From the NCBI GenBank assembly GCA_030651475.1, contig JAUSEW010000002.1:19927-83926 (forward strand): a stretch of DNA of 64,000 bases. Reading direction: 5' to 3'. Each line of letters begins with the position of its first letter. Position 1 is the stretch's first letter. Positions 3,659-32,079 of the stretch are shown here, one piece after another. The position numbers and the translations under genes were made by a program. The notes below the pieces were generated by a model that was not told the DNA's origin, did not search any database, and worked only from the letters and a program-made list of their open reading frames with translations. This DNA is from Candidatus Levyibacteriota bacterium. Its GTDB lineage: Bacteria; Patescibacteriota; Microgenomatia; Levybacterales; UBA12049.

Positions 3659-5122
3659 ATGCAGAGTTCTTTTGTAATGGTTATTTTTGGTGCAACCGGT
3701 GATTTGGCGCAAAACAAACTTATCCCCTCGCTTTTTTCTCTTTTCAAACAAAAACAACTACCAACAGACTTTTTTATAGTAGGTTTTTCAAGAAGAGAAC
3801 TTAGCGACAGCGATTTTGGATCATATTTCAAAGCTCTTCAAGATAAAGAAGGATGGAATGAGTTTGCCAAACATTTATCTTACCAAAAAGGAAGCTTTGA
3901 TGACATAAGCGGATATTCAGAGCTTATAGATAAACTTAAAAAACTTGACGACAAAATCGGCGCGTGCGTAACTCGCTTTTTTTACCTTGCCACTCCTCCG
4001 GATCATTATCAAAATATTCTTAAGTTTTTGCGGGAAACTAAACTATCGGAGGGGTGCGGTCCCCACTTCGCCCCGCTAAGCGGGGCTTCGAGGAGCAAGC
4101 AAGAGAGTAAGTGGACAAGGATAATTATTGAGAAACCTTTCGGTAAGGATCTAGAGACTGCAAAAGCATTGGATATGAAGCTTTCCGAAGTCTTTGAGGA
4201 GAAACAAATTTTTAGGGTGGATCATTACTTGGGTAAAGAAACAATGCAAAATATTATTGCTTTTAGATTTGCCAATGGAATTTTTGAGCCGGTTTGGAAT
4301 AAAAATTTTATAGACCATGTGCAAATTACTTGGGCGGAGGAACAAGGTGTAAAAGAAAGGGGAAATTTTTTTGACGGAGTAGGATTACTTCGGGATGTCG
4401 GACAAAATCATTTGATGCAGCTTGTTACGGCAGTTGCTATGGAAAGCCCGAAGAGTTTTTCCAAAGAAGGAGTCAGAGATGCAAGAGCAGAGGTTATTAA
4501 AAAAATCCGTTGCGTAGAATCAAGTGAAGTTTCGAAAAATATAGTTAGGGGTCAATATGAAAATTATAGATCGGAAAAAAATGTAGCGAAAAATTCCAAT
4601 ACGGAAACATTCGTTGCTATGAAAATTTTTGTTGATACGGATCGGATGGCAGGCGTGCCTTTTTATATAAGAATGGGTAAAAAAATGCCCAAAAATTTAG
4701 TTGAAATATCTGTTGTTTTTATACAGACTTGCCACATTTTGTTTAAAGAATATGGCTGTCCTGAAATAGGAAATGTTTTGGTGTTTAGAATTCAGCCGGA
4801 TGAAGGAATTAATCTTCGCGTCATCGCAAAAAAGCCCGGCGCCAAGCTTTCTCTAGGAACCGTTAATATGAATTTTTCCTACGAAGATCAATTTAGGACA
4901 AATGGAGCAGATGCGTACGAGAAAGTGCTTCTTGATATTTTTGCAGGCGATCAAATGCTTTTCAATAGATCGGATGAGTTGGAAAGTTCATGGGAATTTA
5001 TAACAAAAATTTTGAAAGGATGGGCTAATTTAGGGGTTGAACCCCTAAAGTATAAGGCGGGAACTTGGGGACCGGAAGAGGCGGAGGCGCTAATCGAAAA
5101 AGACGGGAGGAAGTGGATATAA
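3659..5122 (+). CDS. zwf: glucose-6-phosphate 1-dehydrogenase
   Basis: IFGATGDLA NADP motif, IIEKPFG and RVDHYLGKE active-site motifs. Confidence 0.9.
   Translation: MQSSFVMVIFGATGDLAQNKLIPSLFSLFKQKQLPTDFFIVGFSRRELSDSDFGSYFKALQDKEGWNEFAKHLSYQKGSFDDISGYSELIDKLKKLDDKIGACVTRFFYLATPPDHYQNILKFLRETKLSEGCGPHFAPLSGASRSKQESKWTRIIIEKPFGKDLETAKALDMKLSEVFEEKQIFRVDHYLGKETMQNIIAFRFANGIFEPVWNKNFIDHVQITWAEEQGVKERGNFFDGVGLLRDVGQNHLMQLVTAVAMESPKSFSKEGVRDARAEVIKKIRCVESSEVSKNIVRGQYENYRSEKNVAKNSNTETFVAMKIFVDTDRMAGVPFYIRMGKKMPKNLVEISVVFIQTCHILFKEYGCPEIGNVLVFRIQPDEGINLRVIAKKPGAKLSLGTVNMNFSYEDQFRTNGADAYEKVLLDIFAGDQMLFNRSDELESSWEFITKILKGWANLGVEPLKYKAGTWGPEEAEALIEKDGRKWI
4049..4094. repeat. GC-rich hairpin element inserted in frame in zwf
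   Basis: ~46-bp GC-rich segment in an AT-rich gene with internal stem GCCCCGC-TAA-GCGGGGC. Encodes ~15 extra residues (GCGPHFAPLSGASRS) just before the conserved IIEKPFG. Confidence 0.6.
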
Positions 5123-24314: not shown

Positions 24315-25343
24315 ATGTTCTATCCAAAATATACTATTACCGATCGGCTTCTTGCTAATATAAAAAGAATTAATATCTTAGTAAGCGAATTGAACAATAG
24401 ACGGTTTCCTCATGTTGTTTTATTAGAATTAGAGAGAGTAGCTAGGGAAGTATCTGCTTATGCTTCAACTAGCATTGAGGGTAATCCATTGCCCCTAACA
24501 GAAGTCAAAAAAATTCTTAAATCAACGCCCGTACACATACGAGACAGCGAGAGAGAAATATTAAATTATAATCAAGCACTGCAAGATTTAAATAGAAAAC
24601 TTAAGGAAGAGAGTGCGCGTTTATCCCTTGACCTTATTTTACAAATTCAAAAACAAGTTATGAGGGATTTATTGTCGGAATCTGAAGCAGGAAGACTTCG
24701 AGAAAAACCGGTAGTTGTTAACGATCCGCGAACGGGACAGGTTGTATATTTGCCGCCTGAAATTAAAGACGTAAAACGCCTTATGGAAGATTTGATTTCG
24801 TTTGTCAATTCGAATAGGGAAGCTATTGATTCCCTCATTCTTGCCGGTATTTTCCACAAACAAATGGTTATTATTCATCCCTTTATGGATGGTAACGGAA
24901 GAACAACTCGTCTTGCAACTAAGGTGTTACTTGCTGAAATGGGACTTAACACATTTAATCTCTTTAGCTTTGAAAATTACTATAATAAAAATGTTACAAA
25001 GTATTTCCAAACAGTAGGGGAATTTGGCAATTATTATGATTTAACCGAAGAAATTGACTTTACTTCTTTTCTTGAATATTTTACTGAAGGAATTATCGAT
25101 GAGCTCTTACGAGTAAAAAAAATACTGCCAAAATTTGCGGCAACTCCGCAAACGCAATTACAAACTTATCACTTGAAATTACTTAAGCATATTCGAGAAG
25201 AAGGTTTTATTAACGATAGGAATTATGCTCAATTGACAGATCGAGCTAAAGCAACAAGGACACAAGACTTTAAAAAGCTGCTAAAATTGGGTTTAATTGA
25301 AAAAAAAGGGAAAGGTAAAGCCACATATTATATTTTGAAATAA
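24315..25343 (+). CDS. fic: Fic family protein (class II, AMPylase-type motif)
   Basis: HPFMDGNGRTTR Fic motif, N-terminal inhibitory-helix motif STSIEG ([ST]xxxE[GN]) and C-terminal wHTH-like tail. Confidence 0.85.
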   Translation: MFYPKYTITDRLLANIKRINILVSELNNRRFPHVVLLELERVAREVSAYASTSIEGNPLPLTEVKKILKSTPVHIRDSEREILNYNQALQDLNRKLKEESARLSLDLILQIQKQVMRDLLSESEAGRLREKPVVVNDPRTGQVVYLPPEIKDVKRLMEDLISFVNSNREAIDSLILAGIFHKQMVIIHPFMDGNGRTTRLATKVLLAEMGLNTFNLFSFENYYNKNVTKYFQTVGEFGNYYDLTEEIDFTSFLEYFTEGIIDELLRVKKILPKFAATPQTQLQTYHLKLLKHIREEGFINDRNYAQLTDRAKATRTQDFKKLLKLGLIEKKGKGKATYYILK

Positions 25344-27323: not shown

Positions 27324-28109
27324 ATGACAATGCGACACATTGAAAGCAAAGAAGGATTAGGAGAATTCGTTGGGGATCCCAATGGCGATAAAGCCAAATT
27401 AGCAATAACTCTCATAGAGGGCGCAAGAAAATGGAGGGAGACATTTGGAGATATTTCTTTGCCATCTGTTACAGCTTCAGTTGAAGTAAAACCATTTTCT
27501 CCAGAAGCAGTTACTAATTATTGGCGAACAAAATTACAAGCAGATGGTAAAAGAATAGGACTTTCTATTTCCGTGCCAGATTGTAGTTGGACAGAAGCAG
27601 AAATAAGAAAGCCAATGGTAGATGTTAAAGGAAACGAAGTTCCTTCAATGTTAGTTTATGTTCCGCAAGAGCTTATGGGAAAAGAAGGATTAGTAAGATT
27701 AGGACAGATGTATCCAAAGATGAATAACTGGTCTGTTCAAGAAGACACTAGCGTGCAAAATAGTCCTGATGCAAACAAAAAAGGCGGATGGGTTAAAGTA
27801 GAAGCAATTGTTGATGCCCCAAATCTTAATACTACTCAGGAAGATCTTGAACAGCATGCCAAAGATAAAAAATATTTCGCACAAACATTAAATACTTTTA
27901 TTCTTGCTTCTCAAGCAAATAAAGATTTAACAGGACGTTACTTAGATGAAGGATCGACATGGTCTCGTTTGCTTGGTTCTCGTCGCGCGAGCGGTGTGGT
28001 TCATGCCGACTTCGGTTCGGGTGGGTACTTGTTTGTCGGTTGGGGTCTGGGTCCGCAGGGTCACGGTTCGGGCATAGGCGGGCGTTTTGAAGAAGTGAAG
28101 AAAGCTTAA
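27324..28109 (+). CDS. DGR variable (target) protein, C-terminal CLec/FGE-like variable region
   Basis: C-terminus carries the VR (..GSTWSRLLGSRRASGVVHADFGSGGYLFVGWGLGPQGHGSGIGGRF..). Confidence 0.8.
   Translation: MTMRHIESKEGLGEFVGDPNGDKAKLAITLIEGARKWRETFGDISLPSVTASVEVKPFSPEAVTNYWRTKLQADGKRIGLSISVPDCSWTEAEIRKPMVDVKGNEVPSMLVYVPQELMGKEGLVRLGQMYPKMNNWSVQEDTSVQNSPDANKKGGWVKVEAIVDAPNLNTTQEDLEQHAKDKKYFAQTLNTFILASQANKDLTGRYLDEGSTWSRLLGSRRASGVVHADFGSGGYLFVGWGLGPQGHGSGIGGRFEEVKKA
27971..28097 (+). repeat. DGR variable repeat (VR)
   Basis: 127 bp aligned to the TR without gaps. 26 of 28 mismatches are at TR adenines. Confidence 0.85.
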
Positions 28110-28430
28110 ACCTTTGCCTCTTTGTCCTTTTAGCTCCTTTGACTTTCGTTTTTTTATAGTCCTCCCAAACTATTTTATGCTACAATACTCCTGAGAGTAG
28201 GTTAATACATTCTTAAGCTAAGACTTTAGAATTACCGAAATCCTTGATTTTCAAAATTTTGTTCGATTTCTGTTGTTTATGGATAACAGAAGAATACAAA
28301 AGAAAAACAAGACACTTCTTGCCTAATGCTTGCGAAGATGTCCTGAGCTTGTCGAAGGACTACTTCCAAATAAAATACAACAGTAAGAGTAATCAAACTG
28401 TGGTGGTAATTGATGGCATAAGGCAAAAAA

Positions 28431-28557
28431 GCTTGGTTCTCGTAACGAGAGCAATGTGGTTAATGCCAACTTCAATTCGGATGGTAACTTGAATGTCAAT
28501 TGGAATCTGAATCCGCAGAATCACAATTCGAACATAGGCGGGCGTTTTGGAGAAGTA
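28431..28557 (+). repeat. DGR template repeat (TR)
   Basis: AAY-codon-rich (Asn) copy: ..NVVNANFNSDGNLNVNWNLNPQNHNSNIGGRF.. Confidence 0.85.
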
Positions 28558-28564
28558 GCTTGTT

Positions 28565-28861
28565 TTAAATTTGAGTTAATGATCTTTTCCATCCTCCAAG
28601 CATCCTGCCAACTTCTTGGAGGAATTGTTCTAACTGTAGATATTTATTATTGTCAAGAGATTGAACATCTTTAGCCAGTCTGAGCAATATCTTTAAAAGA
28701 TCTAATGAGATGATAGCTTTTTCAAGATAAAGAAGCTTTTTGTCTTTCTGACTTGTTCCTGCCATAAGGATTAGTTCGAAAATTGTAAGCGTTAGACTAT
28801 CCAGCTTTTGTCCTAAAGTGTAGCGGTCTTTTTTGGGGAAAAGCTTCAGGTATCCATACAA
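28565..28861 (-). CDS. avd: accessory variability determinant (Avd), four-helix-bundle family
   Basis: C-terminal EVGRMLGGWKRS matches Bordetella phage Avd EVGRILGSWIAR, and FPKKDRYTLGQKL is the helix-2 signature. TTG start. The frame stays open upstream through the (AC)n tract. Confidence 0.75.
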   Translation of the reverse strand: MYGYLKLFPKKDRYTLGQKLDSLTLTIFELILMAGTSQKDKKLLYLEKAIISLDLLKILLRLAKDVQSLDNNKYLQLEQFLQEVGRMLGGWKRSLTQI

Positions 28862-28911
28862 TAATTTGTAGAAATCATAGAATCTTTGAATAAGAGGTAT
28901 GTCAAAGTCAG

Positions 28912-28932
28912 GTGTGTGTGTGTGTGTGTGTG
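28912..28932. repeat. (GT)10 dinucleotide microsatellite between divergent avd and RT
   Basis: GTGTGTGTGTGTGTGTGTGTG. Confidence 0.9.
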
Positions 28933-28947
28933 AATATCTTTATCTGT

Positions 28948-30012
28948 ATGCATATTGATACATTCGACGGTGCCGAGCACCGCTCAGTATCAACCCTGAG
29001 CGAAGTCGAACGGGTTGATTATTCCAAGCTTATCTCAATAGAAAATTTATTTCAAGCATGGAAAGAGTTTAGAAAAGGAAAAGCTAAGCGTTTTGATGTT
29101 GCGGAATTTGAAAGGAATTTAGAAGATAATTTATTTGAATTACATTTAAAATTGAAAAATAAAAGTTATAAACATGGAGGTTACGAATCATTTTATGTTC
29201 ACGACCCAAAACAGCGGCATATTCATAAAGCAAGTGTTATAGATAGGGTAGTTCATCATCTGCTTTACACCTTTTTGTATAAGTTGTTTGACAGAGTATT
29301 TATTTATGATTCCTATTCCTGCAGACTTAATAAAGGAACCCATAAAGGAGTAAAGAGATTAGCGGAACTTACAAGAAAAGTTTCTAAAAACTATACAAGA
29401 CCTTGTTTTGCTTTAAAATTAGATATTAAAAAGTTTTTTGCCAGCGTTGACCATGAAGTTTTACTTACCTTACTTAAGAAAAAGGTTAAAGATAAAGATA
29501 TTATTTGGTTGTTAGTACAGATAATCAATAGTTTTTACTCGGATAAAGGAGAAGGGAAAGGAATGCCTCTTGGCAATTTAACCAGTCAGGTTTTTGCCAA
29601 TATTTACCTCAATGAACTTGACCAGTTTACAAAACATAAGTTAAAAGTAAAATATTATCTTCGTTATGCAGATGATTTTCTGTTTTTATCAAAGAATAAA
29701 GAGTTATTGTGTAAATATATTGACGTATTAAGACAATTCCTGAGCAACGGACTTAAACTTGAACTTCATCCTAATAAGATTATCTTTCGTAAATTAGAAT
29801 GGGGAATTGATTTCTTAGGCTACATAGTTTTACCTCATTATATTTTGCCAAGGACAAAAACTAGAAAAAGGATTTTTAAAAAATTAAAGGAAAATGTTGG
29901 TTCAGAAAACTTTAATCAATCCTTGCAATCCTATTTAGGATATTTAGGGCATGCCAGCAGTTTTAAAATAGCCCAATCTCTACTTTACTTTTACCAAAAA
30001 TATAGCTTATGA
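28948..30012 (+). CDS. DGR reverse transcriptase
   Basis: N-terminus ENLFQAWKEFRKGK resembles Brt. GNLTSQVFANIYLNELD carries the DGR SQ motif. RYADDFLFL is the YxDD motif. Start could instead be GTG 28912. Confidence 0.85.
   Translation: MHIDTFDGAEHRSVSTLSEVERVDYSKLISIENLFQAWKEFRKGKAKRFDVAEFERNLEDNLFELHLKLKNKSYKHGGYESFYVHDPKQRHIHKASVIDRVVHHLLYTFLYKLFDRVFIYDSYSCRLNKGTHKGVKRLAELTRKVSKNYTRPCFALKLDIKKFFASVDHEVLLTLLKKKVKDKDIIWLLVQIINSFYSDKGEGKGMPLGNLTSQVFANIYLNELDQFTKHKLKVKYYLRYADDFLFLSKNKELLCKYIDVLRQFLSNGLKLELHPNKIIFRKLEWGIDFLGYIVLPHYILPRTKTRKRIFKKLKENVGSENFNQSLQSYLGYLGHASSFKIAQSLLYFYQKYSL
28990..29018. repeat. palindromic element (family 1, inverted orientation) within the RT 5' region
   Basis: TCAACCCTGAGCGAAGTCGAACGGGTTGA. 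Confidence 0.65.
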
Positions 30013-31447: not shown

Positions 31448-31690
31448 ATGGAACAAACAGTAATGCAAGTTGGCAATTCTTTAGCAGTCACTTTACCCAA
31501 GCAATTTGTTGACGCTAAAAAAATAAAAGCAGGACAAAAAATGCTTGTGGATGCAGACAATGATCTCTCTGTGGTTCAAATAAGAACAAAGAATTCTAAA
31601 GCCTCCAAGATTACTCCCGAATTTAAGAACTGGCTTGACGCATTCAATACCCGCTACAAGACAGCGCTTACTGAGCTTGCAAAAAAGTGA
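31448..31690 (+). CDS. AbrB/MazE-family antitoxin
   Basis: VGNSLAVTLPK swapped-hairpin motif. Overlaps doc by 4 nt. Confidence 0.7.
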   Translation: MEQTVMQVGNSLAVTLPKQFVDAKKIKAGQKMLVDADNDLSVVQIRTKNSKASKITPEFKNWLDAFNTRYKTALTELAKK

Positions 31691-32079
31691 GACAGACTAA
31701 GCACCTTATCCTCGACGAAGTAATTGCGATACACGATAGCATGATCGAACAGTATGGAGGAAGTTTCGGAATTCGCGATATTGGACTACTTCAGTCAGCG
31801 ATTAGCAGGCCGCAGGCATCATTTGGGGGCGTTGATCTTTATCCAACTATATTTGATAAGGCTGCCGCTCTTTTTCATTCATTGATGTTCAACCATGCTT
31901 TCATGGATGGAAACAAGAGGACAACCATGACAACAACTGCCAGATTCCTTGCAATAAATGGTTACTTGGTTGTAGTAGAACAAAGAGAATTTGTAGATTT
32001 TCCTCTTCGAGTGGAGAATAAACACCTCTCTCTTGGGGAAATCGTCGCTTGGCTGAAGAAACATACAAAGAAGATGTAA
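31687..32079 (+). CDS. doc: Doc toxin (Fic-fold kinase)
   Basis: HAFMDGNKRT Doc motif, 130 aa. Confidence 0.8.
   Translation: MRQTKHLILDEVIAIHDSMIEQYGGSFGIRDIGLLQSAISRPQASFGGVDLYPTIFDKAAALFHSLMFNHAFMDGNKRTTMTTTARFLAINGYLVVVEQREFVDFPLRVENKHLSLGEIVAWLKKHTKKM

Follow-up and report, generated by a model that had tools for sequence, protein, structure and literature searches.

What does a perfect GT repeat do between two genes of a mutagenic machine? The question is raised by a 64,000-nucleotide stretch of a Candidatus Levyibacteriota metagenome-assembled genome (MAG; GenBank assembly GCA_030651475.1, contig JAUSEW010000002.1), called the window below, in which a GT tract lies beside the reverse transcriptase (RT) gene and the gene of the accessory protein Avd (avd) of a diversity-generating retroelement (DGR). 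A sequence-only reading of this DNA had placed the tract in a divergent avd/RT control region and had proposed that slippage alters promoter spacing and thereby governs DGR activity. The idea of a slipped-strand switch on the DGR is strongly supported by the comparative evidence presented here, whereas the promoter mechanism and several details were not borne out. With a probability of roughly 0.7, the tract is a slipped-strand translational ON/OFF switch on Avd, of which the assembled (GT)10 allele is an OFF state.

The tract itself is real and non-random. Positions 28912-28932 read exactly GTGTGTGTGTGTGTGTGTGTG, the perfect 21-nucleotide (nt) run that had been reported, i.e., (GT)10G on the plus strand and C(AC)10 in the avd sense. 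Within the window, whose GC content is 38%, it is the sole dinucleotide simple sequence repeat (SSR) of at least five units, the other simple repeats being A8/T8 runs and one (AAGA)3, and it was matched in none of 100 dinucleotide-preserving shuffles with two mismatches allowed. A search of Rfam at the tract returned a chance-level match alone (E = 0.76). The tract belongs to the coding sequence of avd, in its 5' leader, and not to a non-coding control region; the following features are needed to describe it:

28912-28932, minus strand: (GT)10G tract, the proposed slipped-strand switch, encoding the (His-Thr)n of the Avd N-terminal leader (frame simulation, variable copy number in relatives).
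28948-28953, both strands: ATGCAT palindrome holding the two start codons, the RT ATG (28948-28950, plus strand) and the avd leader ATG (28953-28951, minus strand).
28846-28953, minus strand: leader open reading frame (ORF) as assembled, starting at the genuine avd ATG and leaving the Avd frame past the tract, with the 35-residue OFF-state product MHTDKDIHTHTHTHLTLTYLLFKDSMISTNYCMDT*.
28565-28909, minus strand: Avd body, from Asp15 to the stop of the frame-restored 128-residue protein, a predicted four-helix bundle (Pfam bAvd, AlphaFold, Foldseek).

The avd gene is called as a minus-strand ORF of 98 amino acids with a TTG start (28565-28861). The tract does lie between this TTG and the RT ATG at 28948, as the sequence-only reading had it, and the avd frame does stay open upstream of the TTG, reading ...HTHTHT-PDFDIPLIQRFYDFYKLL and running through the tract as (TH)n until a TAA at 28942-28940. 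The TTG is nonetheless not the start of avd. Indeed, the called ORF aligns with the Pfam profile from its residue 2, at profile positions 15-106 (62 bits), and corresponds to residues 31-128 of the frame-restored protein, which matches PF22296 (bAvd) at positions 4-106 of 107 (69.3 bits). In the AlphaFold (AF2) model of the restored Avd, built on 32 homologues (predicted local distance difference test score of 88), four helices are predicted, the first spanning residues 18-35 and consisting mostly of the PDFDIPLIQRFYDFYKLL residues, while residues 1-13 are predicted to be disordered. Foldseek matched this model to the Bordetella bAvd chains 4dwl/8ub7 with template modelling scores of 0.76-0.92 and root-mean-square deviations of 1.3-1.8 Å (1.3-1.5 Å on superposition), and on these grounds the avd product is predicted to be a four-helix-bundle protein of the bAvd family. 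TTG 28861, which is the codon of Leu31, was rejected as a genuine or alternative start because 13 of the 18 residues of helix 1 would be lost and because the codon is not kept start-capable in relatives.

The avd leader instead starts at an ATG at 28953-28951, which opens MHTDKDI-(HT)n and had been misplaced to the complement of 28953-28955. At the ATGCAT palindrome avd and RT overlap head-to-head by 6 nt; this start is conserved in the four closely related loci L001-L004, and RT homologues begin MHxDY there. The tract begins 21 nt past the leader ATG and ends 15 nt upstream of the RT ATG, so that a repeat whose unit is not divisible by three sits inside an ORF near its 5' end. At (GT)10 the frame opened by the leader ATG is shifted by two bases relative to the Avd body, and the product is the 35-residue peptide. 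According to a frame simulation, (GT)9, (GT)12 or (GT)6 brings the ATG in frame and gives an Avd of 126-130 residues, and (GT)11 gives a 15-residue peptide. Hence, the gain of one unit does not produce an extended Avd, as had been thought; frame restoration requires the loss of one GT unit or the gain of two (n = 0 mod 3).

These data suggest a mechanism in which the GT tract would act as a hypermutable SSR in the avd 5' coding leader of a DGR of the type found in the candidate phyla radiation (CPR). Translation from ATG 28953-28951 would produce the disordered leader MHTDKDI, then (His-Thr)n, then the four-helix-bundle body; slipped-strand mispairing during replication would add or remove GT units, and only n = 0 mod 3 (6, 9, 12) would join the ATG to the Avd body. 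The n = 10 allele would be OFF, giving the 35-residue peptide and no full-length Avd. Because mutagenic retrohoming of the Bordetella phage DGR requires Avd as well as RT (PMC5758913), the repeat would gate DGR hypermutation stochastically, heritably and reversibly in a subpopulation of cells. Under this mechanism, switching within a population would be frequent and reversible, OFF alleles would make no functional Avd and, by analogy with the phage element, Avd would be essential to the window DGR.

The leader was then compared among relatives. A search with the restored Avd returned 200 homologues, many of which, 125-146 amino acids long, start with M-x-x-K-D/E-I-(HT)2-4 followed by DIPLxxKxYDFYKLL. 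One in-frame homologue (P0028, locus L099) has the N-terminus MHTDKDIHTHTHT, identical to the window leader MHTDKDI(HT)n. At the leader position of other Avd homologues, (GQDRT)3-4, QNRT or RQTD repeats were found, corresponding to penta- or tetranucleotide repeats in the DNA. It could be supposed from the retention of (HT)n at the protein level in many in-frame homologues that the (His-Thr)n peptide itself is selected, for example as a metal-binding or flexible tail, and that the frame effects are incidental. This is hardly credible: poly-Pro, (GQDRT)n, (RQTD)n, (SINQ)n or (ER)n stand at the same place elsewhere, with no common chemistry and with a repeat unit not divisible by three as their common property; besides, the leader is predicted to be disordered, and P0025 begins directly at the Avd core, without any leader.

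Closer to the window, the three nearest Avd relatives (90-92% identical) are all called as 98 residues from the same internal codon. The DNA of L001-L004 shows the ATGCAT start and the leader as in the window, and none of the four is in frame. Their tracts differ in length, being (CA)9.5 in L002, (CA)6.5 in L003 and (CA)8.5 in L004, where the leader ATG is offset by 1 from the Avd core; that of L001 is decayed and interrupted (CACACACACGCACAG). L002 and L003 encode the same 98-residue Avd and have identical upstream flanks, and their tracts are three repeat units apart. L004 (positions 1-1500) still has avd with its leader and a vestige of the N-terminal part of RT (reverse complement of ...CCATGCTTGAAATATGTTTTCTATTGAGATAAG), followed by an HrcA gene in place of RT; this locus appears to be a decayed or rearranged DGR.

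To avoid gene-call bias, a frame-blind survey was designed in which the Avd core was anchored by tblastn and the upstream sequence scanned. It covered 160 further loci fetched by Avd-body match from GTDB species genomes and Joint Genome Institute (JGI) metagenomes, 147 of them after deduplication; these loci were chosen by similarity to the window Avd, and the statistics given below ignore phylogenetic kinship. A leader SSR was defined as a perfect repeat of at least 10 nt and at least three copies, at most 95 nt upstream of the Avd core. Such a repeat was present in 75 of the 147 loci, with units converging on the same site from several types, namely (CA)5.5-28, (C)10-13, (AGGAC/ACAGG/CAGGA)7-13.6, (ACAG/CAGA), (ACAGA)6, (AATC)19.8 and (AG)12. 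Only three leader repeats had a unit that is a multiple of three (TCT, TAT and TTC runs). For the longest, (CA)28 in L031 (core -63 to -7), the ATG is in frame, yet a stop codon immediately precedes the core.

In all 75 SSR loci, an upstream ATG opens an ORF that runs through the repeat. Relative to the Avd core, this ATG has offset 0 in 21 loci, 1 in 27 and 2 in 27, a distribution not different from uniform (p = 0.62); ON and OFF alleles thus occur across the three frames. An in-frame start upstream of the core was found in 24 SSR loci and lacking in 51, compared with 69 and 3 among the SSR-free loci (Fisher p = 2.5e-17, a value that overstates independence because the loci are phylogenetically related). 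Non-triplet SSRs of at least 14 nt numbered 54 in the 14 kb of leader sequence vs 27 in the other 684 kb, an enrichment of about 100-fold. At the same time, the Avd core ORF is intact (110-121 codons) in all 54 OFF loci, as it is in the 21 in-frame and the 72 SSR-free loci. The codon at the Leu31 position is TTA in 20 loci, TTG in 16, CTG in 14, CTA in 12 and CTT in 5, and in 43 of the 75 SSR loci the first 30 core codons include neither ATG nor GTG nor TTG. Because of this codon variation and the lack of start codons, a truncated Avd made from an internal start is not a conserved product.

The survey also bears on the promoter-spacing switch, in which transcription would be tuned by the length of a tract situated in or near the promoter of RT or the divergent promoters of avd and RT. 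Such a switch is known from Haemophilus influenzae hifA/hifB, where a (TA)n repeat sets promoter spacing. The two cases share a dinucleotide repeat between divergent genes, whose length change could affect both; the window repeat differs in lying inside an ORF and in having no workable -35/-10 pair around it. Some features of the locus would suit a promoter: the RT ATG comes 15 nt after the tract, a separate RT promoter must lie in the avd 5' region since the start codons overlap, and by inspection TGTGAATAT at the 3' end of the tract resembles an extended -10 element. The hexamers previously put forward as RT promoter elements, GTCAAA (28901) and GAATAT (28932), are indeed present with a 25-nt spacer, but each matches the consensus at only 3 of 6 positions. 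A sigma-70 scan found no site across the tract, a weak test since CPR promoters are poorly known. Its sole hit (TTGTCG-16-TAAAAT, 28349-28376; 1 vs 3.2 expected by chance in the region scanned) lies upstream of the template repeat and inside the match to Rfam family RF03019 described below. Nor does any single -35/-10 spacer geometry accommodate the relatives, whose repeats measure 10-79 nt and lie at distances of 1-50 nt (median 19) from the RT ATG. Promoter spacing further leaves unexplained the read-through ATG in 75 of 75 SSR loci, the nearby in-frame ATG in SSR-free loci and the SSRs found in the middle of RT genes (see below). Taken together, a promoter-spacing switch of the hifA/hifB type is unlikely.

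The translational switch would act on a complete DGR:

27324-28109, plus strand: target gene with the variable repeat at its 3' end.
27971-28096, plus strand: variable repeat (VR), from TR/VR comparison.
28431-28556, plus strand: template repeat (TR), 126 nt, from TR/VR comparison.
28948-30012, plus strand: DGR reverse transcriptase, 354 amino acids (RVT_1 match, E = 1e-22).

TR and VR differ at 27 of 126 positions, 25 of which are TR adenines, and this adenine bias, together with the bAvd and RVT_1 matches, confirms the DGR context. The RT is 100% identical to P0121, from a Candidatus Levybacteria MAG, and thousands of RT homologues adjoin Avd genes in CPR MAGs; by sequence, the window RT probably belongs to the DGR clade. 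The order TR-(avd)-RT is architecture B3, which made up 90% of the CPR set of Wu et al. 2018 (PMC5758913). The window element resembles these CPR-type DGRs (PMC5758913) in gene order, orientation, adenine-specific TR/VR differences, Avd four-helix bundle and RT clade.

Whether repeat length changes between near-identical genomes was examined in sibling contigs. L108 and L107 are identical over 3,716 nt save for one CA unit, which leaves one of them in frame (ON) and the other OFF. Likewise, L111 and L112 are identical over 2,193 nt save for C11 vs C10. Among contigs from different samples, L090 and L091 differ over 3,858 nt by one substitution and one AGGAC unit, L039 and L155 over 4,456 nt by three substitutions and one CA unit, and L132 and L151 over 4,862 nt by 23 substitutions and one CA unit. 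In these five pairs, 99.5-100% identical over 2.2-4.9 kb, the repeat is the single indel, and the same holds for L143/L141 over an 800-nt flank. Copy-number polymorphism between near-identical genomes was therefore found in the relatives, in these siblings as in L002/L003. The siblings L132/L151/L157 and L002/L003 are represented in the Rifle and Hainich metagenome time series. The substitutions are not scattered either: in L090/L091 and L039/L155 every one of them lies in the VR (core +800 to +940) at a TR-adenine position. In L132/L151 a first cluster lies in the VR, where the TR base is mixed (about half T on this strand), and a second one, at 4381-4465, matched no TR-like copy and is only presumed to be a second VR, perhaps in a second target gene. 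The sibling populations that could be checked differ only at the repeat and at DGR-mutated sites. To judge from these contigs, the DGRs of the relatives appear to have been recently active, with a repeat that seems to toggle on a comparable time scale.

A further explanation should be considered in the light of these pairs, namely that the out-of-frame state is the normal one and that slippage by some transcripts or ribosomes yields a constant low amount of Avd, the repeat setting the dose. About two thirds of the consensus alleles are indeed out of frame with intact gene bodies, and long homopolymers such as C10-13 are known substrates of transcriptional slippage. Such a rheostat is nevertheless quite improbable: offsets +1 and +2 are equally frequent (27 vs 27), whereas dedicated recoding signals normally fix one direction; in-frame alleles occur within the same lineages; polymerases and ribosomes slip poorly on penta- and tetranucleotide units; and the copy number changes in the DNA, between otherwise identical siblings.

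A second repeat site was found within the same machine. In 19 loci without a leader SSR (L017-L019, L025, L026, L029, L033-L037, L040, L043, L046, L050, L053, L057, L060 and L128), the RT ORF contains an (AG)n repeat of 5-16.5 units (RT sense), which is located some 565-650 nt upstream of the avd core and corresponds to about residues 196-205 of the window RT. The equivalent site of the window is the loop KKKVKDKD (about 29530-29560), which carries no repeat. The RT frame is shifted across (AG)n in 14 of the 19 loci and kept in 5; where no such tract is present, 99 loci are in frame and 7 are not, and four of these seven (L028, L047, L076 and L041) have a poly-G run (G7-G12) at the same RT loop. 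The two sites do not coincide, since 73 loci have a leader repeat only, 19 an RT repeat only and none both. Independent repeats that differ in unit type, placed at two sites of one machine and disrupting the frame at each of them in roughly two thirds of the consensus sequences, are hard to explain except by selection for reversible inactivation.

This convergence of repeat types and sites also addresses the possibility that the tract has no function, being a neutral mutational hotspot or an assembly error in a decaying avd pseudogene. That NCBI holds no Avd protein for the window MAG is consistent with annotation as a pseudogene, and the L001 tract is interrupted and the L004 RT lost. Against this stand the full-length Avd cores of 54 out of 54 OFF loci, the enrichment of non-triplet SSRs at this position in several independent unit types, and the second convergent site in RT. 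Moreover, unit differences of 5 nt and of 2 nt are seen repeatedly, in independent assemblies whose flanks are otherwise identical, which is atypical of sequencing error, and the VRs are still diversifying between siblings. A functionless tract is thus very improbable. Extending the translational switch beyond the window, it seems probable that CPR/Patescibacteria routinely hold DGR hypermutation under stochastic, heritable SSR ON/OFF control, either in the avd leader (about half of the sampled loci, the window included) or in the RT internal loop (a further 13-16%), with unit types that arose independently several times.

Several observations weigh against a translational switch on Avd. The window tract is known at one length, (GT)10, in a single copy; exact-protein look-ups with the window RT (both starts), the 98-residue Avd and P0121 returned no second copy of the locus. 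The neighbouring YkuD and VanW genes recover the same population in SRR13727527, whose contigs stop at the VR and inside RT, short of the tract. All five members of the immediate clade of the window are OFF or decayed, and the three-unit difference between L002 and L003 leaves both in the same OFF frame. A frame distribution of about 1:1:1 is also the neutral expectation if the frame is irrelevant. With regard to the mechanism, the requirement for Avd was demonstrated for the Bordetella phage DGR only, and Avd could leak from OFF alleles if translation started at a low level from ATA (Ile18) or ATT (Ile21), if slippage occurred during transcription or if ribosomes shifted frame. Finally, with the RT start 15 nt away from the tract, effects on the transcription or the 5' untranslated region of RT are inseparable from those on Avd, and tract length may have an added effect on RT expression.

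How does such a switch compare with known ones? Contingency loci of this kind include Neisseria opa, with (CTCTT)n in the signal-peptide coding region, the tetranucleotide repeats of Haemophilus influenzae lic/mod and the poly-G tracts of Campylobacter. The window and its relatives share with them a non-triplet repeat that follows shortly on the start codon, within an N-terminal segment tolerant of length changes (a design resembling that of opa), a copy number that varies between otherwise identical genomes, ON and OFF frames with an intact body, and different repeat units at the same site in different lineages. They differ in that the gated gene encodes an accessory protein of targeted hypermutation rather than a surface antigen or a restriction-modification methylase, and in that the hosts are uncultured groundwater CPR/Patescibacteria and not host-adapted pathogens. 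General mutators can also be switched, through short tandem-repeat indels in mutL or mutS or through prophage excision from mutL. These have in common with the present case a reversible genetic switch of mutagenic capacity in a subpopulation, but they toggle the genome-wide mutation rate by disabling repair, whereas here the switch would act on site-directed, adenine-specific diversification of one target protein. The switching mechanism proposed is a known one; its target, a targeted hypermutator, would be of a new class, and it would operate at scale in a group of organisms new to it.

SSR-driven translational phase variation of contingency loci is a classical phenomenon and has been reviewed (PMC11868660, PMC3546556). 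Unlike our survey, that of Wu et al. (PMC5758913) and the other DGR papers searched report no repeats or frame switching in avd or RT. Repeats or phase switching in the avd or RT genes of DGRs were not described in any of the literature searched, an earlier mention in Paul et al. 2017 (Nat Microbiol) not being excluded; "diversity-generating retroelement" and "simple sequence repeat" co-occur only in general reviews, and no paper was found that combines DGR, CPR and frameshift. The control of DGR mutagenesis is an open question, a recent study stating that the regulatory mechanisms of retrohoming await discovery, and a repeat switch on avd or RT would be a concrete mechanism that can be read from sequence. 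If true, it would amount to phase-variable targeted hypermutation, a bet-hedging switch placed atop a diversity generator, and to the first widespread contingency-locus system described in CPR. It would carry contingency-locus biology from host-adapted pathogens to ultra-small groundwater bacteria. There are practical consequences as well. Avd and RT genes of CPR MAGs that are called truncated (such as the 98-residue P0008-P0010), with spurious (CV)n N-termini or as pseudogenes may be OFF-phase alleles of functional genes, and for DGR-based directed-evolution tools the switch suggests a natural design for pulsed mutagenesis. Other DGRs have already been reconstituted in E. coli (for example, PMC12875486). 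The proposal can be tested in existing metagenomes by relating the fraction of in-frame reads to VR diversification.

Regarding the RT start, GTG 28912 is in frame with RT and gives (CV)n, as had been noted; the extension of RT that this implies is an artefact of gene calling. In relatives, RT begins with MHxDY at ATGCAT, and a CV extension is seen only where a caller chose a GTG inside the tract. Just after its initial MH, at about 28954-29016 (plus strand), the window RT has some 20 additional in-frame codons, IDTFDGAEHRSVSTLSEVERV, compared with L001-L004. This segment is locally GC-rich and sits where an avd promoter would be expected. A mobile insertion was considered for it; a variable N-terminal extension is more likely, since P0166 has a similar N-terminal peptide (NDRVLDEVARS). 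A 23-nt complementarity between the VR and this RT 5' insertion was judged to be a chance match.

Upstream of the TR, positions 28267-28432 (plus strand) gave a full-length but sub-threshold match to the Rfam RT-16 RNA (RF03019; 32.1 bits vs a gathering score of 50, E = 0.004-0.009). This match abuts the TR 5' end, and the AUAAAAUACA box and the outer stems were matched while the first hairpin was not; the segment may be the structured 5' part of the DGR RNA. Regarding the VR, one Logan contig of the same population in SRR13727527 (L166, window position about 27987) stops some 16 nt inside the VR, and another (L165, about 29784) inside RT; heterogeneity of the VR in the sample would produce just such a break at its start. 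Further from the DGR, a 342-residue Fic-domain protein (PF02661) is encoded upstream of it at 24315-25343 (plus strand), and a small antitoxin-like ORF followed by an overlapping 130-residue ORF, Fic/Doc toxin-like by eye, lies at 31448-32079 (plus strand).

Two minor observations were made on the surveyed loci. Several MAGs labelled "uncultured Gammaproteobacteria" or "Candidatus Saccharibacteria" (L008, L009, L011, L027, L029, L031 and others) carry DGR cassettes of the Levybacteria/Microgenomates type with 61-68% Avd identity, and these labels look unreliable. Perfect tetra- or heptanucleotide repeats, such as (TCCA)10, (ATTGCCC)4.4, (AAATGTC)4.6 and (AATTTCA)4.6, were seen elsewhere in the CPR loci (L006:5100, L009:391, L010:5183, L020:1893, L027:5678, L122:847, L072:474 and L160:3808) and may be further contingency loci.

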